From an uncultured Pseudomonadota bacterium (GTDB taxonomy: Bacteria > Pseudomonadota > Alphaproteobacteria > Rs-D84): a stretch of 64,000 nucleotides of DNA. The stretch spans positions 32,860 to 96,859 of the forward strand of contig CADBBQ010000001.1 of the NCBI GenBank assembly GCA_902793005.1, read 5' to 3'. Positions 4,175 through 62,746 of the stretch are shown here, one piece after another. Each line of letters opens with the position of its first letter. Positions within the stretch are counted from its first letter, which is position 1. Below the pieces are notes generated by a model. It was not told where the DNA came from and did not search any database. It saw only the letters and a list, made by a program, of their open reading frames with translations. The position numbers and the translations under genes were made by a program.

Positions 4175-4199
4175 TCCCAGCCCCCTCCACGGGGGCTTT
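4175..4199 (+). terminator. Rho-independent terminator after the kefB-like gene
   Basis: GC hairpin (agccccc-tccac-gggggct) followed by a T-run. Confidence 0.5.
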
Positions 4200-4200
4200 T

Positions 4201-5040
4201 TAGTGTTCAGAATAATTAGACAAAACGTTGAAAACGTTTTGTCATCCTGAGCGTAGTGAGATTACGTTGTGGCAACCCCACATAAGTAATCGAACGCAGT
4301 CGAAAGCGAGCGTTTCGCGAGCGCGGATCCAGGCATATTTGATGCCCTGGCGCATCCGCGCCACCCCCTCGGACATTCCCCTTCTTTATGAAAGAAGGGG
4401 TGGATTGTGAGCAAAGCGAACAAGACGGGGTAGTTGTGATTTTTATTTTTTATGGCGACTGGCGTCGCTCTGCACAACGTTGAAAACGTTGTGCAAAAAT
4501 TTATTGCATACGCAAAAAAATTTTTTCTATAATAACATCAGAAATCATCTGGGAGTTGATTTCGGAAGGCCTTAGAAAAGCCCGATTGACCCGGTGCAGA
4601 ACTTGCATCGTTATCCCACCCGTGCACGATTCGATTCGGTGCGGTTGTGTTTAACAATTCATTTTTTGCACCGACATTTATTTGTCGATATTTGATTAGA
4701 TAAATGTAAATTTTATTCCCGACTAAAAAACCCGCCCAAAACACATTCACATATTTTGGCATGGGTGCCGCATACAGTAATGTATGTGGGGTCATTGGTC
4801 AATTGATTTTTCTAACACCCTGCCGTTATTTTTTCCCGCTGATTTCCCAGCGGTTTTTTGTTTGTTTTGGAATATTTAAACAGGCCCCGAACCCAACTCC
4901 CTGTGTAGAAAACACACACAAGGCCTTTTATTCCAAACAAACAATCCACCGCACAGATTCCGCCCCAAGCGATAGCGTGGGGAGGGGGACCGCGCCAGCG
5001 GTGGCGGGGGTTAACAAAAAGAAAGAACGGGAGAAAAGCT
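4201..5040. repeat. Copy A of a conserved non-coding leader/repeat region upstream of a secreted-protein gene (second copy at 36181-37393)
   Basis: Long stretches with obvious similarity to 36181-37393. Shared blocks are the cttctttatgaaagaagg hairpin, the acggggtagttgtga block, the promoter-like ttgca(t/c)acgcaa...ttttttctataata, and ggtgccgc(a/g)tacag(t/c)aatgtatgtggggtcattg...tttgctaacaccc. The RBS context gaacgggagaaaa(g/a)ctATG is also shared. The ORFs predicted here (e.g. 4228-4410) lie inside repeat DNA. Confidence 0.7.
4503..4538 (+). promoter_or_regulatory. Putative sigma70-type promoter (TTGCAT-18 nt-TATAAT) within the conserved leader; the matching copy is near 36545-36580
   Basis: ttgcatacgcaaaaaaattttttcTATAATaac. 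The same arrangement (ttgcacacgcaataaaattttttcTATAATacc) is found in copy B. A perfect palindrome cacaacgttgaaaacgttgtg lies immediately upstream and may be an operator. Confidence 0.4.
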
Positions 5041-7269
5041 ATGATAAAGAAAATATTATGTGCGATGTTGGGGCTATTATTCACGATATCTGCAAACGCG
5101 GCATGCAATTTATATACAACAACAAATAGTTCTGCCGGATACATTGATGGAAGTGGTGTTGTACAAAACGCGAGCAGTTATTTGGCAACGGATTACATTG
5201 CGGTTAACTCATCAACCGAATATACCGTTTATATCAAACAGAACGCTGCCATTAGCGGTCACGGGGTTCGTATTGCGTTTTATGATACAAACAAACAATT
5301 TATTTCTCCGCGCCTTGGTGGCGATGCCCCAAGTGCCGGTCAATATATATACAATTTAACATCGCCTGCAAATGCTAAATATATCAGAATGTCAACATAC
5401 GACGGTAATAGTGTTGTCGACAGAACAATAGTCCAGGGTCGATATACCGTGGACACAATCCCAACAAATATGTCGCAATGTGCGACGTGTGACGGGACGA
5501 TTGTGAATTATGTTTCTGCAACTGGAACCGTGTCGCAATCTGGAACTCCAACACCAGACAATCCGATTTATCCAACTTTCTATACCCAGGGCAATATGGT
5601 CCTGCGCAAAGTTGGCAATGTCGCAGATTCTTACGATGCGTCAACGGGTAAAATCACTCGTCGCGTCGGTGTTGCTGTGTTGGATGGTACGGAGAGATGG
5701 GGTGCTCACGCCAGTAACGCAGGTTGGTTTCAATTATCAAGTGATATTTTCCCAACAGATGTTAATACAGATGCATTAAGTACACACTATAGGCAATACA
5801 CACATAATCCATCAAGTATGGCCAATCAAGACATTTTATTTGGACGTCCAGACAGTAGCACAGGAAGAGTTGTTATACGTGATGCTATAAACTTTCCTGA
5901 TGTAGGTCTTGCGGATGATTTTAAATCCTGGCTAGCGCAACAATATGCTGCGGGAACGCCCGTGACGGTTTACTATCCGTTGAAAACGGAAACGACCGAG
6001 GATTGGCCGGCGTCTTACTGTGAAACGCCGATTAAAATCGCTACAACCAAATACAACGAAACTGCATTCAGTCCGCTGAATACGGCGTTGGCGAATGCGA
6101 TTAGTGTGGTGGATTCGGTGGTGTCAAACACGATAACCCAGGCGGCGAGCATCGCGACTTTGCAGGCACAAAAGCAAACGCGGCCGGCGAATGACACTTG
6201 TCCGGCGTACAAACAATGTTTATTGGTTGAGGATGAAAACGGTGCCCCGCACTGGTACGAAATCACCGACCCGTTCCGGGATTTCGTCCGCCCAATTATC
6301 GCGAACAATGTCAACGCGGCATCGTCGACATCCACCAATGGTTATACACAATTGGAATACATCGAATCAACCGGAACACAGTATATTGATACGGGGGTAC
6401 AAGCAACGGGTGATCTTGATATTAAAACAAGATTTAAAATAATATCATACGGCCCCCTATTTGGTACACGAGATGTTGCTACAGGAGCATCGAATAAATC
6501 GGTTTGGGTGGCAGCTTTGGACGGAAGAACCATTTGGTTATACAACAATAAAACTACACATAACCATTTGGAAAAATTAAATTTAGATCAATGGTATGAT
6601 GCAGATATAAACAAAGGCGTGTTATCTTTTAATGGCAATGAAGTTGCGTCGTATGAAACAGAAAATTTTACTGGTTCTGATATATTTCTATTTAATACAA
6701 ATGAGGCCAATGGCACTCTTGCAAGTGGGGCTTCTGTACAAATATCATATTTCAAAATTTATGATGCATCTGGCACCCTCGTTCGCAACTTTGTTCCAGT
6801 TGTTAATAATACAACCGGGAAAATTGGTATGTATGACACTGTCGGTGGGCGGTTCTATGGCAATGCGGCGACGTCGGGTGATGATTTCACCGCGGGTCCG
6901 ATTGTTGAAAACGATGCGGATGTTCCGGGTATGAGTTGGACCGCAACATGGGCGGCGGATGCATCCACGGGTGTTTCAGCCGGCACGGTGTACGGCATCG
7001 CCCGGTGTAATACCCACCCCTCAACGGCAGGTAGCATCATTACGGACACCGCCAGTACCGCATTTAACACACTGGGAAGTATTTGTCACTGTAAAATGAC
7101 ATCAATAGATTTCGAAGGCAGCATATCGGACACAAACACCGCAAAATGGGTGCATGTTGACCATGCAAACGGCGGAACAAAGGTATGTCTACAACAATGC
7201 AGCACATGGTGTCGCGGTTTTACAACAATGACCGAACGCAACAAACCGGTATTATCATCCGTATTGTAA
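5041..7269 (+). CDS. Secreted or lipoprotein paralog A (742 aa) of a two-member family; function unknown
   Basis: N-terminal signal peptide MIKKILCAMLGLLFTISANAAC. A central block (IKIATTKYNETAFSPLNTALANAISVVDSVVSNTITQAASIATLQAQKQTRP...CLLVEDENGAPHWYEI, YTQLEYIESTGTQYIDTG) is nearly identical to 37394-38899, while the N- and C-terminal parts diverge. C-terminal motifs are shared as well (GKIGMYDTVGGRFYGN vs GVVGMYDTDNGVFYEN). Confidence 0.7.
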   Translation: MIKKILCAMLGLLFTISANAACNLYTTTNSSAGYIDGSGVVQNASSYLATDYIAVNSSTEYTVYIKQNAAISGHGVRIAFYDTNKQFISPRLGGDAPSAGQYIYNLTSPANAKYIRMSTYDGNSVVDRTIVQGRYTVDTIPTNMSQCATCDGTIVNYVSATGTVSQSGTPTPDNPIYPTFYTQGNMVLRKVGNVADSYDASTGKITRRVGVAVLDGTERWGAHASNAGWFQLSSDIFPTDVNTDALSTHYRQYTHNPSSMANQDILFGRPDSSTGRVVIRDAINFPDVGLADDFKSWLAQQYAAGTPVTVYYPLKTETTEDWPASYCETPIKIATTKYNETAFSPLNTALANAISVVDSVVSNTITQAASIATLQAQKQTRPANDTCPAYKQCLLVEDENGAPHWYEITDPFRDFVRPIIANNVNAASSTSTNGYTQLEYIESTGTQYIDTGVQATGDLDIKTRFKIISYGPLFGTRDVATGASNKSVWVAALDGRTIWLYNNKTTHNHLEKLNLDQWYDADINKGVLSFNGNEVASYETENFTGSDIFLFNTNEANGTLASGASVQISYFKIYDASGTLVRNFVPVVNNTTGKIGMYDTVGGRFYGNAATSGDDFTAGPIVENDADVPGMSWTATWAADASTGVSAGTVYGIARCNTHPSTAGSIITDTASTAFNTLGSICHCKMTSIDFEGSISDTNTAKWVHVDHANGGTKVCLQQCSTWCRGFTTMTERNKPVLSSVL

Positions 7270-7282
7270 TGTCTTTACCAAA

Positions 7283-7312
7283 TAAAAAACATCCGGCAAC
7301 GGATGTTTTTTT
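7283..7312 (+). terminator. Rho-independent terminator
   Basis: aaaaaacatccggcaacggatgtttttttatg: the stem catccg/cggatg followed by a T-run. Confidence 0.55.
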
Positions 7313-25132: not shown

Positions 25133-25172
25133 AAAGTTTGAACTTTGAACTTTGCACTTTGAACTTTGATAA
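25133..25172. repeat. TTTGAAC/TTTGCAC short tandem repeat (intergenic rplA-rplJ); an identical 33-mer occurs at 61938-61970
   Basis: ttgaactttgaactttgcactttgaactttgat is found verbatim at both loci. Degenerate relatives are at 36190-36228, 36490-36520, 36945-36985 and 44078-44175. Confidence 0.8.
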
Positions 25173-36165: not shown

Positions 36166-36192
36166 AAAAACCGGCATATGCCGGTTTTTTTA
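36166..36192 (+). terminator. Rho-independent terminator after plsX
   Basis: aaaaaaccggcatatgccggttttttt. Confidence 0.55.
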
Positions 36193-37393
36193 GTGTTCAG
36201 AGTTCAAAGTACAAAGCACAAAGTACAATTATGGCAGGATAATTCATTCTCGGACATTCTCCTTCTTTATGAAAGAAGGAGTACCCGAGCAAGCATCGGC
36301 GCGCGAGGGGGAGGTAGTTGTGCACGGCGACAAAGTGAAACGGCGTCGCCATAAAAAAAATTAAAAATCACAACTGCCCCGTCTGACTCGTTGACACTCG
36401 TCATCCACCCCTTCTTTTCCCGTCCCCGCACAGCGGGGCCGCGGTTGAAAAGACGGGGAATATCCAATAATAAATAATTATGCCACAACTGAACTTTGTA
36501 CTCTGTACTCTGAAAACTGCACAACACCCGTTGTGCAAAAAAATATTGCACACGCAATAAAATTTTTTCTATAATACCTTTGTGAATCCGAAACAAGGGA
36601 GTTGGATTCCGGTGGCTTTAGCAGGCCTAAAAACTCCGGTGCAAAGTTTGCATCGTGACTCTCCCAATCTGAAAAACCGATTCGATAATCGGGATGATTG
36701 TGTTTGTTGCATCCATATTTTGCACCGACATTTTTATCACGGTGCCGGAGAAAATTTTTAAATCCCCCTGATGAAAATGTAAATTTTTCCCAGACTGAAA
36801 CCCCCATTATAACATTTTATGTTTGTCGGGGTGCCGCGTACAGCAATGTATGTGGGGTCATTGAGTTTTTGATTTGCTAACACCCCGGCCGCATTCCCGT
36901 TTTTGGATTTGGCGGTGTTTTTTATTTTTTCGCGACTGCGAAAAAATAACAGAGTTCAGAGTGCAAAGTTCAGAGTTCAGTTGATGAATTATTGAATTTG
37001 ACTGTGAACCCAGCCCCGGACATTCCCCGTCGCCAATTTTTACCGAGGTAAAACCGAGGATTAAAAATTGAGCGCCGCGCCGTAGCATTGCGCGTTTTGG
37101 GGGAACGAACCTTGTTTTGTCGGCGAAGGCGGGCAAACCCTCGCGTCAGCACAAAAAGAAGGGGTGGCACGAAACCGTCAGGTTGAGTGACGGGGTAGTT
37201 GTGAAAAAATTACCGCACGGTGGCGTTTTGTTTTGGGAAAATTAAAGGCTCCGAATTCAATTCCCTCGACACAACTGCGTTGTGTCTGCGGGGCACTCCT
37301 CGCTCACGACCAGTTGTGTTTAAACAAAACCAGGCTTTTTGTCCCGAAACAAATCCACCGCACGAACAAAAAGAAAAGAACGGGAGAAAAACT
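36181..37393. repeat. Copy B of the conserved non-coding leader/repeat region (see 4201-5040), longer and with extra internal repeat units
   Basis: Shares the cttctttatgaaagaagg hairpin, acggggtagttgtg units (three, one inverted), the TTGCAC...TATAAT promoter, the conserved block ggtgccgcgtacagcaatgtatgtggggtcattg, and gaacgggagaaaaactATG. Confidence 0.7.
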
Positions 37394-38899
37394 ATGAAAA
37401 AAATATTAAGCCTCGTACTGGGGCTGTTGTGGGCTGTGCCCGTATTGGCACAAGAAAATTATTTATCCGCACTGTCATTATCTGGCACTTTTGTTACGGG
37501 CGCCGAAAAACCATATAAAATCCCCGTACGTGTCAGCAACGGCGAAACATCGCAAACCGGATACATTTACGCCAATGCGCCTGTATATAAATTAAGTAAT
37601 TACGCCGACGTGGTTGATTTTCAAACGGGAAAAATTACACGCAATATTAAAAAAGATGTTTTTACCGGAGCAGAAGCCTGGGGATATTCCGGATATGCAC
37701 CGGGCAGATTATTTATATTTAATAACAACGCAAAAAAAGAACTTGCGCTGGGGGCAAGTAATTATTACCCATTTGTAAACAACATAAGCGAAGATATGCC
37801 AGATAAAAGTTTTTCCATCCAAGGATATTCAACAACCCAAAACGGCATATTTTTAAACGATAAAAGTTATACATCCGCGGCTGCGTGGAAAGCGCATTTA
37901 ACTGAATTATATAATGCGGGACGACCGTTGGAAATATATGTTGTGACAAACACGCCCACGGTCGAAGAAATTAATTTATCAACTTTGCCACAAATGTCTG
38001 GAAATGTGACATACCAAGTAATATTCCCAGAACCACAAATTGCAATTGCTACAACCAAATACAACGAAACGAAATTTTCGCCGCTGAATACGGCGTTGCA
38101 AAATGCGATTTCGGTGGTGGACACGGTCGTGTCGAACACGATTACTCAGGCCGGGCGGATTGCGACTTTGCAGGCACAAAAACAAACCCGACCGAACGAC
38201 ATTGCGGACGACAATGAAAAATGCCCCGCCGGCAAAAAGTGCCTGCTGGTCGAAGACGCCAGCGGTGTCCCACATTGGTACGAGATTGTAACAAGTCGCT
38301 TGCCCGACGGCTATACCGAATTGCAGTATATCGAAAGCACAGGAACGCAGTATATTGATACGGGGATTGTTGGAAAATCCATTGTTGGTATAGAATATGA
38401 TTTTACTATATTGAACGATATTACTGTTGGTAGTTCGTTATTTGGTACTCGTTTATACGGAAATGTTGGTAGCGGAATAAACTTTGGGCACTCTGCAGAC
38501 GGAAAAGTAACAGTAGATTTTTTTGACGGCTACAGATATACCAGTAATTTATCTTTTGAAAAAAATACCCCTTATAGATTAGTAGTCCAAAATAATAAAT
38601 ATACACTGTATAATGCTATTACTGGCGCGACAGTAGACTCGCATACTTTTAATGCCACGACTAGTGATTTGGAATATGTTGCTGTTTTATTTGGTTTAAA
38701 TAATGGCGGAAGCATTAGTGCGGCGAAAGATTCTGTAAAAGTCACAAGTTGTAAAATATATACGACTAATGGTACAGTGAACCTTGTTCCTGCTAAAAAT
38801 CCAGACGGTGTTGTTGGTATGTATGACACGGACAACGGTGTGTTTTACGAAAACAAAGGTACTGGAACATTTATCGGTGGACAGCCCGTATTTAATTAA
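37394..38899 (+). CDS. Secreted paralog B (502 aa) of the family that includes 5041-7269; function unknown
   Basis: Signal peptide MKKILSLVLGLLWAVPVLAQ, the internal ATG of ORF 37220-38899 with the same RBS context as paralog A. The shared cassette is IAIATTKYNETKFSPLNTALQNAISVVDTVVSNTITQAGRIATLQAQKQTRP...CLLVEDASGVPHWYEIV and YTELQYIESTGTQYIDTG. Confidence 0.7.
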   Translation: MKKILSLVLGLLWAVPVLAQENYLSALSLSGTFVTGAEKPYKIPVRVSNGETSQTGYIYANAPVYKLSNYADVVDFQTGKITRNIKKDVFTGAEAWGYSGYAPGRLFIFNNNAKKELALGASNYYPFVNNISEDMPDKSFSIQGYSTTQNGIFLNDKSYTSAAAWKAHLTELYNAGRPLEIYVVTNTPTVEEINLSTLPQMSGNVTYQVIFPEPQIAIATTKYNETKFSPLNTALQNAISVVDTVVSNTITQAGRIATLQAQKQTRPNDIADDNEKCPAGKKCLLVEDASGVPHWYEIVTSRLPDGYTELQYIESTGTQYIDTGIVGKSIVGIEYDFTILNDITVGSSLFGTRLYGNVGSGINFGHSADGKVTVDFFDGYRYTSNLSFEKNTPYRLVVQNNKYTLYNAITGATVDSHTFNATTSDLEYVAVLFGLNNGGSISAAKDSVKVTSCKIYTTNGTVNLVPAKNPDGVVGMYDTDNGVFYENKGTGTFIGGQPVFN

Positions 38900-39008
38900 A
38901 TACGGGTTGTAATGTGTTGGGGGCGGGCTTGTTTCCTGGGGCGACAATCCGATACAAATTGTGCGGGTCTTGATTTATAATAATGTCGCACAACCAAAGG
39001 AACGAGTT

Positions 39009-44046: not shown

Positions 44047-44193
44047 AAAAACCGACCATCTGGTCGGTTTTTTCAAAGTTCAATTTTCAAAGTGCAGTCA
44101 ATGCTTCGAACAGGATTTTAATTGTTTTATAATTCATCATTTGAACTCTGTACTTTGAACTTTGTACTCTGGTAAAAAATCCTGATGGATTTT

Positions 44194-60000: not shown

Positions 60001-61293
60001 ATGAAAAAATTACCTGAACTTCTTGCGCCGGCGGGCACATTAGACGCATTCAAAACGGCTGTTTTATATGGTGCGGATGCAATTTATGCGGGATTGCCCG
60101 GGTTTTCTATGCGTGCGCGTGCAAAAATTGATGTTGATGGCGTAAAATCCGGTATTGAATTCGCGCACAGCCACGGCAAAAAAGTTTATTTAGCATTTAA
60201 TTTATTTGCGCACGAGCGGGATTTTGAAAATATGTCGCGTGTGGCCGAGGTTGTTGAATATTTAAAACCGGATGCATTAATTGTGGCGGATGCGGGCGTA
60301 TTGATGTGGTGCAAAGAAAAATTCCCCGATATGCCAATCCATATATCGACCCAGGCAAATATTTGTTCGGCGGCATCTGTTAAGTTCTGGCAATCGGCGG
60401 GGGCATCGCTGTGCGTTCTTGCGCGCGAGGTATCGCATCCGGAATTTTGTGAAATTCGTAAACAATGCCCAGATGTAAAATTGGAAATTTTTGTGCACGG
60501 TGCGATGTGTATGGCGTATTCTGGGCGGTGTTTGCTGTCGAATTATATAACGGGCCGTCCGTCAAATCGTGGTGCGTGTGCGCAACTGTGCCGGTGGAAG
60601 TATGATGTCATTTTGCGCGAACGTGAAAGTGGTGTCGAAATGCCAATCGACGAAGATGAACGCGGTGCCTATATTTTGAACAGTAAAGATTTATGCCTGA
60701 TGCCGCGATTAGCCGAAGTATTAGAATCCGCCCCGGACAGTTTGAAAATCGAGGGCCGCAACCGTTCCGAATATTATGTGGGCAGTGTTGTGCGTGCATA
60801 TCGCAATGCAATGGATGCGTGGGCGCGCGACCCGGTGAATTTCAATCCTGATGAATTTATGGCGGATTTAAATGTTTTGGAAACGCGTGGATACACAACG
60901 GCGTTTTTTGATGGGCCTTTGCCGGCGACGGCACACGATTTTGATACAACAAAATCAGATTCCGCATTTCACGCCGCCGGCGTTGTGACGGCTGTTGATG
61001 AATTCCGCCCCAGCCCCAACGGGGCGACCGGGGAGGGGGACCGCGTTAGCGGTGGCGGGGGTATTGTGCTTGAACTGCGTAACGAAGTGCGTGCTGGCGA
61101 CGAAATTACATTTTTATTGCCACGCGACAAATTCAGCATCAAATTGGATAAAATCCAAAACGCCAAAACTGGCGAATTTGTGCCAAAAATGTCCGCAGGC
61201 CAGGGCAACTCGATTTTAATACCGGTTGCCAAAATTCCGCACGAATATTTACCACAAATACAGCAATACATATTGGCATATAAACGCAAATAA
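60001..61293 (+). CDS. U32-family peptidase (YegQ/YhbU-like) with an in-frame repeat-derived insertion
   Basis: MKKLPELLAPAGTLDAFKTAVLYGADAIYAGLPGFSMRARA...VYLAFNLFAHERD...LIVADAGVLMW...HISTQANI matches the U32 N-terminal TIM-barrel consensus. The start was chosen at 60001 because ORF 59911-61293 overlaps the tRNA-Thr region. Confidence 0.82.
   Translation: MKKLPELLAPAGTLDAFKTAVLYGADAIYAGLPGFSMRARAKIDVDGVKSGIEFAHSHGKKVYLAFNLFAHERDFENMSRVAEVVEYLKPDALIVADAGVLMWCKEKFPDMPIHISTQANICSAASVKFWQSAGASLCVLAREVSHPEFCEIRKQCPDVKLEIFVHGAMCMAYSGRCLLSNYITGRPSNRGACAQLCRWKYDVILRERESGVEMPIDEDERGAYILNSKDLCLMPRLAEVLESAPDSLKIEGRNRSEYYVGSVVRAYRNAMDAWARDPVNFNPDEFMADLNVLETRGYTTAFFDGPLPATAHDFDTTKSDSAFHAAGVVTAVDEFRPSPNGATGEGDRVSGGGGIVLELRNEVRAGDEITFLLPRDKFSIKLDKIQNAKTGEFVPKMSAGQGNSILIPVAKIPHEYLPQIQQYILAYKRK
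61008..61062 (+). repeat. G-rich dispersed element (ggggagggggaccgcgNNagcggtggcgggggt) embedded in-frame within the U32 peptidase CDS
   Basis: 34 of 36 nt identical to 4977-5012 in the non-coding leader of paralog A. Here it encodes ...PSPNGATGEGDRVSGGGGIV... inside the ORF without breaking the frame. Confidence 0.7.
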
Positions 61294-61839: not shown

Positions 61840-61925
61840 CCCCCTCCACCGTCTCACCGGGCCCCACGAAATTGAAAATTTCGTGGGTGGTTCACCGGTC
61901 CCCCTCCCCACGCTAACGCTTGGGG
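61840..61925. repeat. GC-rich palindromic element (gggccccacgaaattgaaaatttcgtgggtgg) with cccctcc flanks
   Basis: Perfect hairpin ccccacgaaatt-gaaa-atttcgtgggg. It is followed at 61938 by the 33-nt TTTGAAC repeat. Confidence 0.75.
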
Positions 61926-61930
61926 CGGAA

Positions 61931-62746
61931 TCATTTATTGAACTTTGAACTTTGCACTTTGAACTTTGATATAAAAATTCCGGCGCCAATCACAAACATT
62001 ACGCCCGATAATAATTGTCCCATTGTTAACCCCCAGGTTGTTAAAAATCCAATCTGGGCGTCCGGTGCACGAAACATTTCGCAAAAAATCCGGGCCACCG
62101 CGTACAGCATTGCCAACACGCCCGACAGCGCACCGGGATGTGATTTTAAATTTGTTTTCTTGTATAACCACCACATTAATATAAATAAAATTACGCCCTC
62201 GGTTGCGGCCTCGTACAGGGGGCTGGGGTGGCGTGGCGTGGTTGTGTCGCCACGGAACACGACTCCCCACGGCATATCGGTTGCGCGACCCATAACCTCC
62301 ATATTTATAAAGTTTGCAATTCGGCCAAAAAACAGGCCAATCGGCGCCAAAACTGCACATAAATCCAATAATTTCCACCCGTTTAATTTATTTTTGTGTG
62401 CAAATATAAAATTCGCAATTACAACCCCAATCAGACCACCGTGAAAACTCATCCCGCCGTGCCATACCATAAATATTTCCAACGGGTGCGCAATAAAAAA
62501 CGGCAAATTATAAAATAACACATACCCCAGGCGTCCGCCCAGTATCACACCCAAAATAATCGCGGTTAAAAAATCATCGCTTTGTTTTTTATCCAACATA
62601 ATTCCAGAATTTTTGTCGCGTATCATACGCAAAAACAACCAAAAGCAGATTAAAAATCCCGCGATATAAGCCAATGCATACCAACGAATATCAATGCCGA
62701 ATATTGACACCGCCACGGGCGAAATTGGATTTATAACAATTGCCAT
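61931..62746 (-). CDS. lgt: Phosphatidylglycerol:prolipoprotein diacylglyceryl transferase
   Basis: IRWYALAYIAGFL..., GGRLGYVLFYN, and the Lgt signature GGMSFHGGLIGV. Start at the internal Met (MAIVINPI) of ORF 61931-62794. Confidence 0.88.
   Translation of the reverse strand: MAIVINPISPVAVSIFGIDIRWYALAYIAGFLICFWLFLRMIRDKNSGIMLDKKQSDDFLTAIILGVILGGRLGYVLFYNLPFFIAHPLEIFMVWHGGMSFHGGLIGVVIANFIFAHKNKLNGWKLLDLCAVLAPIGLFFGRIANFINMEVMGRATDMPWGVVFRGDTTTPRHPSPLYEAATEGVILFILMWWLYKKTNLKSHPGALSGVLAMLYAVARIFCEMFRAPDAQIGFLTTWGLTMGQLLSGVMFVIGAGIFISKFKVQSSKFNK

Follow-up and report, generated by a model that had tools for sequence, protein, structure and literature searches.

Why should two loci of one genome, with unrelated flanks, carry the same long non-coding sequence in front of their genes? 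The question is raised by a stretch of 64,000 nucleotides (nt) from an uncultured alphaproteobacterium of the Rs-D84 lineage (contig CADBBQ010000001.1 of assembly GCA_902793005.1), hereafter the window, in which two paralogous genes are each preceded by a leader, referred to as copy A and copy B. Paralog A (5041-7269, + strand) encodes a secreted protein of 742 amino acids (aa), and paralog B (37394-38899, + strand) encodes a secreted protein of 501 aa. A first-pass annotation, made from the letters alone, had noted the conservation of this upstream DNA and had suggested functions ranging from a cis-regulatory RNA or thermosensor to a tract of recombination or gene conversion. Our computational analysis revealed a structured RNA on the + strand with a cis-regulatory architecture, in which a terminator and an antiterminator pairing compete for the same nucleotides, and gave no support to a thermosensor or to gene conversion between A and B. 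On this basis, we lean towards the interpretation that the leader is a new class of riboswitch-like, cis-acting transcription-attenuation element.

That the upstream conservation between the paralogs is real was evident from three comparisons. BLASTN aligned leader A (4487-4820) with leader B (36529-36885) at 68% identity over 371 columns, a MAFFT alignment revealed invariant blocks common to both leaders, and the 19-mer AATGTATGTGGGGTCATTG was found exactly twice in the window, at 4779 and 36845, where 0.02 occurrences are expected by chance. Homology resumes past this first block, with A 4860-4952 matching B 37232-37365. The Shine-Dalgarno and start context is the same sequence in both copies (GGGAG 5029-5033 and ATG 5041-5043 in A; GGGAG 37382-37386 and ATG 37394 in B), as had been observed previously, and a consensus-like promoter of the form TTGCAY, 18-nt spacer and TATAAT was likewise recognised in both. 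The predicted sigma-70 promoter of A lies at 4504-4533 on the + strand (TTGCAT 4504-4509, a T-rich spacer, TATAAT 4528-4533), and that of B at 36546-36575 on the same strand (TTGCAC 36546-36551, TATAAT 36570-36575). The leader length of roughly 500 nt given by the first-pass annotation holds for A (501 nt) and has to be revised for B, where inserted repeats bring it to about 812 nt.

The A locus is situated between a Na/H-exchanger/TrkA gene and lspA, and the B locus follows plsX. Since these flanks are unrelated and the proteins can be aligned in part only, at 38% identity, with most of the coding sequence of A and B unrelated, a simple segmental duplication is excluded, in agreement with what had been argued before. 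Nor are the two leaders being homogenised, as A and B are 68% alike whereas A is 82% identical to the leader of another species (L013). The closest relative of leader B is also found in another genome (L017, 84%). With each copy nearer to leaders of other genomes than to its sister copy, both a recent segmental duplication and gene conversion between A and B were ruled out as the source of the similarity.

Seven leader copies, falling into five sequence lineages, were available for analysis. Besides the two window copies, these are L013, from the related species-level genome UBA3635; L017, upstream of the B ortholog P0123; L023, upstream of P0041 in GCA_046881955.1; L024, upstream of P0083; and L026, from a Joint Genome Institute (JGI) metagenome. 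Every copy (7/7) lies upstream of a gene from one family of secreted lectin-like proteins, L026 included. An nhmmer profile retrieved only these copies and both window copies, each of them upstream of a family gene and on its coding strand. Scanning genome and metagenome collections for exact occurrences of the 19-mer yielded the new loci L013 and L015, the latter a strain variant of locus A, together with the chance matches L014 and L016. The 19-mer contains a hairpin that is variable between lineages, and contig look-ups via the encoded family proteins were more productive than exact-word scans. Other paralogs (L007, L009, L011) are preceded by different long leaders in which nhmmer detected no homology to the studied one. 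As far as sampled, the leader is restricted to one clade of uncultured Alphaproteobacteria and to one gene family.

Alignment of the seven leaders and analysis of covariation, a check which the first-pass annotation had proposed, revealed a fold of about 320 nt on the + strand with 69 consensus pairs (RNAalifold). The paired state was found in 95.9% of the cells, and 22 of the 69 pairs showed compensatory changes. When the 3' partners were slid by 1-3 columns, between 2 and 9 compensatory pairs were obtained, and none of 500 shuffles reached the observed values. G·U pairs accounted for 57 of the 482 paired cells (12%). Because such pairs would turn into C·A mismatches on the opposite strand, and would be mismatched in a DNA cruciform as well, we conclude that the structure is that of a + strand RNA. 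Compared with shuffled versions, single sequences folded much better, with z-scores of -5.74 for the + strand and -4.27 for the - strand of A, -3.82 for B and -6.96 for L026, and single-sequence folds of B and L026 reproduced the architecture of A.

The fold is organised around a core domain (4572-4815, + strand, in A) with internal branches, closed by helix P1 (4572-4592 paired with 4797-4815), in which 11 of 18 pairs are compensatory, as exemplified by CGAUUGACC/GGUCAAUUG in A versus CGGUUGUUC/GAACAACUG in L023. Within the core lie the invariant blocks CCGGUGCA...UGCAUCGU, UUUUGCACCGACAUUU and AAAUGUAAAUUU, as well as a GNRA hairpin (helix 9; CAUACA-GUAA-UGUAUG, 4771-4786, + strand) with compensatory changes in 3 of its 6 pairs. 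Its loop is kept while the stem changes, reading GUAA in A, GCAA in B and GAAA in L026. The leader thus contains an aptamer-like domain whose structure is supported by covariation. The corresponding structured domain of B spans 36582-36923 on the + strand.

At the 5' end, hairpin P0 of A (helix 1; 4541-4563, + strand) is formed by GAAAUC (4541-4546) and GAUUUC (4558-4563) and presents GGGAG (4551-4555) in its loop; in B, it occupies 36584-36609. All six pairs are kept in every copy (100% paired) and two are compensatory, the stem being GAAAUC/GAUUUC, GAAUCC/GGAUUC or GAAUAC/GUAUUC. The promoter hexamers stand at a fixed distance from P0 in all seven copies, so P0 would be the very 5' end of the transcript. 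The transcription start of A, as predicted from the promoter position, is at about 4540-4541 on the + strand, and in every copy no more than 1-3 nt separate P0 from the predicted start.

At the opposite end of the domain, leader A contains an intrinsic-terminator-like hairpin followed by a U-run (4836-4859, + strand; CCGCUG-AUUUCC-CAGCGG at 4836-4853, then U6), which is absent from the first-pass annotation. In B, GCCGC (36888-36892) pairs with GCGGU (36912-36916) ahead of a U-run at 36918-36923. GCGGU followed by U6-8, as in an intrinsic terminator, is conserved in 7/7 copies.

These two ends are predicted to take part in mutually exclusive pairings. In isolation, the 3' tail of all seven copies adopts the terminator hairpin, at -9.2 to -12.9 kcal/mol, and the 5' segment, comprising the first ~50 nt, adopts P0 with GGGAR in the loop, at -9.7 to -20.0 kcal/mol. 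In the minimum-energy fold of the whole domain, by comparison, the 5' end pairs with the tail, extends P1 and uses up the left arm of the terminator, again in 7/7. In A, the tail (4817-4846, + strand) is the antiterminator partner of 4541-4568 and overlaps the left arm and loop of the terminator, and P0 takes the part of an anti-antiterminator. Enforcing the terminator costs 1.0-6.1 kcal/mol of about -110 kcal/mol, upon which P0 reappears in every copy. The models therefore suggest that, in all seven leaders, the terminator and one helix of the sensor domain cannot form together, which is the arrangement of an expression platform. In a cross-duplex test, A-type and B-type 5' ends paired with their own tails at -13.7 and -16.9 kcal/mol, compared to -8.7 and -9.3 kcal/mol when crossed, so that terminator sequences particular to these two types are matched by 5' ends equally particular to them. 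Taken together, covariation across seven copies and five lineages and the presence of both the terminator and the competing antiterminator pairing in 7/7 copies support the earlier suggestion of a cis-regulatory leader RNA.

Directly 3' of the U-run, single-sequence folds revealed a further hairpin, P5, with stems that differ between lineages (4860-4943, + strand, in A; within 37232-37396, + strand, in B, a segment that includes the start region). P5 was not recovered by RNAalifold on the poor MAFFT alignment of the downstream region. It carries a box, CCGAAYYCAAYUCCC, which is present in every leader 91-157 nt before the AUG (CCGAACCCAACUCCC at 4887-4901 in A; CCGAAUUCAAUUCCC at 37251-37265 in B). 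The box is complementary to the 5' arm of the leader (GGGAGUUGAUUUCGGAAG, 4551-4568, + strand, in A), which accordingly has three alternative partners, namely P0, the 3' tail in the antiterminator, and the box. In all seven leaders, no other site of the downstream segment forms a better duplex with the arm than the box (-19.6 to -23.6 kcal/mol), and the duplex of 13-15 base pairs (bp) is conserved. Conserved complementarity of this kind is a trait of base-pairing small RNAs and their target mRNAs; the pairing may operate within the read-through transcript, in cis, or be made in trans by the short terminated RNA. Insertions of small repeats, 300-400 nt in length, separate the terminator from P5 in B, L017 and L023, with neither element disturbed. 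As a separate observation, box-like sequences with one mismatch, CCGAAYYCAAYTCCC, were located 100-560 nt 3' of family genes not preceded by this leader, within another conserved segment (L007:3499-3513, L009:6696-6710, L020:1751-1765 and L021:3000-3014). In the DNA searched, about 0.2 such matches are estimated to be expected by chance.

In full-leader folds, the Shine-Dalgarno site is unpaired in B and in UBA3635 (L013), and in the remaining copies its pairing partners are not the same. With no conserved weak hairpin consistently sequestering this site in the predicted folds, an RNA thermometer of the ROSE or fourU type is not supported, and neither is the earlier thermosensor proposal.

Several further candidates were considered. 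The European Nucleotide Archive (ENA) lists an 85-aa gene on the opposite strand (L001 2498-2755, equivalent to window 4538-4795, - strand). Since the indels between copies are not multiples of three and no reading frame is conserved across the seven leaders on either strand, coding on the minus strand was rejected, and this gene call is probably spurious. A ribosome-mediated attenuator of the trp/his/phe type was dismissed for want of a leader-peptide open reading frame conserved in frame among the seven leaders. The inverted repeats around the block had raised the idea of an invertible promoter or terminator switch; it was rejected, as the block is inverted in no strain or species copy and the arms of these repeats have the character of RNA helices, G·U pairs included. 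A phage origin was rejected as well, since the proteins gave no PHROG match and the two-block leader pattern had no match among the viral contigs of IMG/VR. The RNA of a diversity-generating retroelement or retron was discarded as the leader has no similarity to coding sequence, and no reverse transcriptase was present among the Pfam-scanned genes or in the gene tables of the fetched loci. A search of the literature on this organism group returned nothing relevant.

Known RNA families were addressed with Rfam 15. A scan of the whole window with its 4227 models at gathering threshold gave three tRNAs only, and E-value scans (up to 5-10) of A, B, L013, L025 and L026 gave scattered sub-threshold matches with no recurring family. 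No covariance model scored at or near its gathering threshold in any scanned copy, and a known RNA family was thereby rejected.

In architecture, the leader is comparable to terminator riboswitches such as the large cobalamin and lysine classes and the cyclic di-GMP (c-di-GMP) classes governing surface or adhesion genes, in which a covarying multi-branched domain is likewise closed by a P1 helix whose 3' strand overlaps an intrinsic terminator, making domain folding and termination mutually exclusive, and which occupy the same 5' position behind their own promoter. It differs from them in a core of about 270 nt, larger than most aptamers, in its extra 5' anti-antiterminator hairpin and downstream complementary box, in a gene context that suggests no ligand and in having no Rfam match. 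The lectin-like gene context recalls second-messenger riboswitches that control surface proteins, a resemblance to which we attach no evidential weight. With the Bacillus trp leader/TRAP system, the BglG/SacY ribonucleic antiterminator (RAT) and the T-box, it shares the three-element logic of anti-antiterminator, antiterminator and terminator, in which a trans factor decides. Unlike these, the studied leader has no GAG/UAG repeats, no RAT sequence, no Rfam T-box match and no leader peptide, and its conserved intervening domain is far larger than in the trp, RAT or T-box attenuators. To our knowledge, T-box leaders are not usual in alphaproteobacteria.

Further parallels are found among less conventional RNAs. 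The processive-antitermination RNAs HK022 put and Bacillus EAR are also promoter-proximal structured RNAs upstream of surface-related genes, where transcription crosses terminator-like hairpins, to which inserted repeats are added in the case of the leader. In contrast to put and EAR, the leader would compete by base pairing directly with one adjacent terminator and is not known to modify the polymerase, and it has no sequence or Rfam similarity to either. HEARO, GOLLD, ROOL, raiA and OLE resemble it in having been found only by conservation and covariation in uncultured or poorly studied bacteria and in being large, multi-branched, GNRA-containing RNAs of orphan function. Unlike those, the leader is strictly 5' of one gene family, has a built-in terminator switch and does not match their models.

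The mechanism we favour is the following. Each leader would be transcribed from its own sigma-70-type promoter, and the resulting ~320-nt RNA would control its own terminator, with the multi-branched core closed by P1 as the presumed sensor. In the OFF state, the first ~25 nt would form P0 and the 3' tail would form the hairpin before the U-run, so that transcription would stop after about 320 nt. In the ON state, the 5' nucleotides would pair with the 3' tail, extend P1 and remove the left arm of the terminator, allowing polymerase to enter the lectin-like gene. The choice would be biased by a factor, which may be a small ligand, a protein or another RNA, binding to the core or to the GGGAR loop of P0. 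The P5 box probably refolds the read-through transcript or receives the short RNA.

Several points weigh against this attenuation mechanism. The seven sequences used to score the structure are also those that it was predicted from, a sample that is small and related, and the evidence for the leader is entirely computational with a narrow phylogenetic range. Transcription start, termination and read-through are all predictions, as are the existence and nature of the signal. The antiterminator fold is thermodynamically favoured in 7/7 copies, which implies that termination would depend on co-transcriptional kinetics. In the B-type leaders, L024 and L026, an internal loop splits the terminator hairpin into stems of 4-5 bp and 2-3 bp, which may make it weak, and in the cross-duplex test the 5' ends of L024 and L026 showed no preference for their own tails. 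The repeats inserted between terminator and gene in B, L017 and L023 carry hairpins of their own, and read-through would have to cross them. Finally, no ligand or protein partner is indicated, as genes for secreted lectin-like proteins do not point to a metabolite, and a transcript that always stopped at the terminator would be a stand-alone RNA.

The last point leads to the main alternative, which we regard as possible but less likely, namely that the locus produces a stand-alone or dual-function small RNA of ~320 nt, with its own promoter and terminator, acting in trans. Either the 5' arm of this RNA or the GGGAG loop of P0 would pair with the box of family mRNAs started from a separate promoter downstream of the terminator, which might coordinate expression among the paralogs. 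The predicted promoter and the terminator-like hairpin with its U-run, kept in 7/7 copies, are what such an RNA would need, pairing between the 5' and 3' ends is a common trait of stable RNAs, and large insertions between terminator and box are tolerated. The complementarity of the arm to the box in every leader at -19.6 to -23.6 kcal/mol points the same way, as do the box-like sequences 3' of other family genes (L007 3499, L009 6696, L020 1751, L021 3000). However, in the sequences examined the RNA always lies beside a family gene, and the box is 91-157 nt from the AUG rather than at the ribosome site. A small RNA has no obvious need for a conserved fold that destroys its terminator, yet such a fold lies within 1-6 kcal/mol in all seven. 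Between terminator and ATG, a scan detected no promoter-like pair on the + strand, which is weak evidence because the main promoter of A was missed by it too. A combination of both ideas, in which a large RNA sensor gates a hypervariable family of secreted glycan-binding proteins and its ~320-nt terminated product doubles as a trans RNA, docking with its GGGAG loop or 5' arm on the boxes of sister leaders, would be a long shot. Termination at one paralog would in that case act back on the others and so coordinate the paralogs or make their expression mutually exclusive, an RNA-based control of surface variation.

A leader without any signal could also be purely structural, with P0 or the compact fold protecting the mRNA, in the way in which the ompA 5' hairpin protects its mRNA from 5'-end-dependent decay, or with the arm:box duplex serving as an RNase III processing site at which the leader is trimmed. 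The placement of P0 within 1-3 nt of the predicted start, the conserved 13-15 bp duplex and an antiterminator fold that is the minimum-energy state everywhere would fit such a constitutive role. We nevertheless consider it unlikely, as it leaves unexplained both the conserved covarying core of about 270 nt with its invariant single-stranded blocks and a hairpin with U6-8 exactly where the 5' end competes. Highly improbable, in our estimate, is a function at the DNA level only, as recombination or gene-conversion anchor or part of a mobile cassette. Such a function would be in line with leaders 96-100% identical between strains whose coding sequence is partly replaced, with family genes and leaders at different loci and orientations in related genomes, and with dispersed repeats flanking the family genes and assemblies that often break inside the leader. 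Compensatory changes and strand-specific G·U pairs are not expected of a DNA site, though, and homogenisation is contradicted by the 68% identity of A and B, lower than the 82% between A and the leaders of another species. A DNA-level role can coexist with a function of the RNA and cannot replace it. Because the leader is 96-100% identical between strains with replaced coding sequence, the attenuation leader may additionally be a recombination anchor.

The genes behind the leaders belong to a family for which no sequence match was obtained in Pfam, PHROGs or PDB. Signal peptides are present in proteins A and B, and their homologs were found only in assemblies of uncultured Alphaproteobacteria from gut and rumen, many of these genomes carrying several paralogs. 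An AlphaFold2 model of B (mean predicted local distance difference test score, pLDDT, of 68.8) showed two jelly-roll domains of ConA/LamG/pentraxin-like type, joined by helices. Foldseek matched this model to pentraxins, LamG, galectin and sialic-acid-binding CBM40 domains with E-values of about 1e-4 to 1e-5 and target-normalised template modelling scores (TM-scores) of 0.5-0.6. From this resemblance in fold, we read the secreted family proteins as lectin-like and possibly glycan-binding.

Comparison of strains revealed that gene A itself is highly variable. In strains with flanks 97-98% identical and leaders 96-100% identical, the C-terminal two-thirds of gene A is replaced or unalignable (window 5703-7284 versus L005 and 6396-6774 versus L004; 742 versus 616 aa at 61% identity, or 84%). 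This suggests that the coding sequence of gene A is a divergence island, under diversifying selection or subject to cassette exchange. The unit of leader plus gene was also found at different loci and in different orientations in close relatives (L013:7236-8000 versus window 36400-38932; L017:3900-5003). In UBA3635, an A-type leader and its gene point away from the mraZ-side flank, whereas gene B points towards it here, and in another strain the B ortholog lies between a secretin gene and plsY. These arrangements suggest that leader-gene cassettes move. Many metagenome contigs end 60-660 nt upstream of family genes, in or beside leaders (L006, L007, L008, L010, L012, L018-L022, L025), as would be expected if assembly fails where a sequence is present in several copies. 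Each genome probably holds more copies than were seen.

A perfect palindrome adjoins the promoter in both window copies, as had been reported, and the first-pass annotation had read it as an operator. In A, it is TGCACAACGTT-GAA-AACGTTGTGCA (4471-4495, 11-nt arms), located upstream of the -35 hexamer; in B, it is TGCACAAC-ACCC-GTTGTGCA (36518-36537, 8-nt arms). Its arms are inverted copies of GTTGTGCA, the end of a dispersed repeat which in most copies lies directly next to the promoter. It is present in only two of the seven leaders, both of this genome, and absent from the B ortholog L017 as well as from L013, L023, L024 and L026. Strains L004 and L015 have other repeats at its position. Missing from 5/7 copies and built from repeat termini, the palindrome is not a conserved operator, and it may have a local role. 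In strain L003 (L003:2222-3003 versus window 4175-5043), an 87-nt deletion removes the palindrome together with the whole promoter, the rest of the leader being identical; either a naturally occurring allele that lacks a promoter and is off, or an error of assembly, could account for this.

Small dispersed repeats are inserted in and around the leaders, which agrees with the earlier description of the region as a landing pad for such elements. The repeat unit formerly counted three times in copy B, ACGGGGTAGTTGTGA, in fact has three occurrences in the window as a whole, of which one is next to A (4425, + strand) and two are around B (36368, - strand, and 37190, + strand). Leader A contains one small dispersed repeat (4955-5012), not found in strain L004 or in copy B and with further copies at 61030-61061 and 61896-61932. 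Leader B contains a mosaic insertion of about 310 nt between terminator and P5 (36924-37230). These belong to an intergenic mosaic of small repeat modules at 4370-4470, 4955-5012, 36190-36520 and 36924-37230, with modules also at 25139-25171, 44129-44174, 61030-61062 and 61896-61972. The modules include hairpin units CCCCTTCTTT..AAAGAAGGGG, units ending in GGGGTAGTTGTG(CA) and tandem-like units AGAGTTCAG, and in all genomes examined (L009, L011, L017, L023) clusters of them flank the family genes on both sides.

Other elements were observed in the neighbourhood of leader A and of further paralogs. A hairpin, GACAAAACGTT-GAA-AACGTTTTGTC, lies at 4219-4243 just after the terminator of a kefB-like gene; its core resembles the palindrome at 4471-4495, and in L005 its upper stem is swapped for another complementary sequence, GACAAAAGCC-AAA-GGCTTTTGTC. 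It is followed, between the kefB-like gene and the promoter of leader A, by a conserved non-coding element of ~125 nt (4244-4368), for which Rfam gave no match at gathering thresholds. This element recurs with 91.5% identity at L007:1-118, upstream of paralog P0012, whose leader is otherwise unrelated. A second, unrelated type of conserved leader precedes other paralogs (L007:300-615, L009:3740-4001). It has a perfect 16-bp hairpin and a T-run, then about 190 nt ending in GATTTTGCCAACACCCCG, which resembles the GATTTTTCTAACACCC block of the studied leader.

Two effects of the leader are visible already, namely a spurious 85-aa open reading frame placed on the opposite strand by gene callers and contigs broken by assemblers in the repeated leader. 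Given its compact size, the element could be studied by in vitro termination assays and structure probing, for which no culture of the organism is needed. If the proposed mechanism is true, it would constitute an uncatalogued class of structured regulatory RNA with a terminator/antiterminator switch, and such orphans have led to new ligands or RNA-binding regulators. The leader would then control a multi-copy, strain-variable family of secreted lectin-like proteins in little-known, uncultured Alphaproteobacteria of gut and rumen, and could show how these bacteria decide on the display of host- or glycan-binding proteins.

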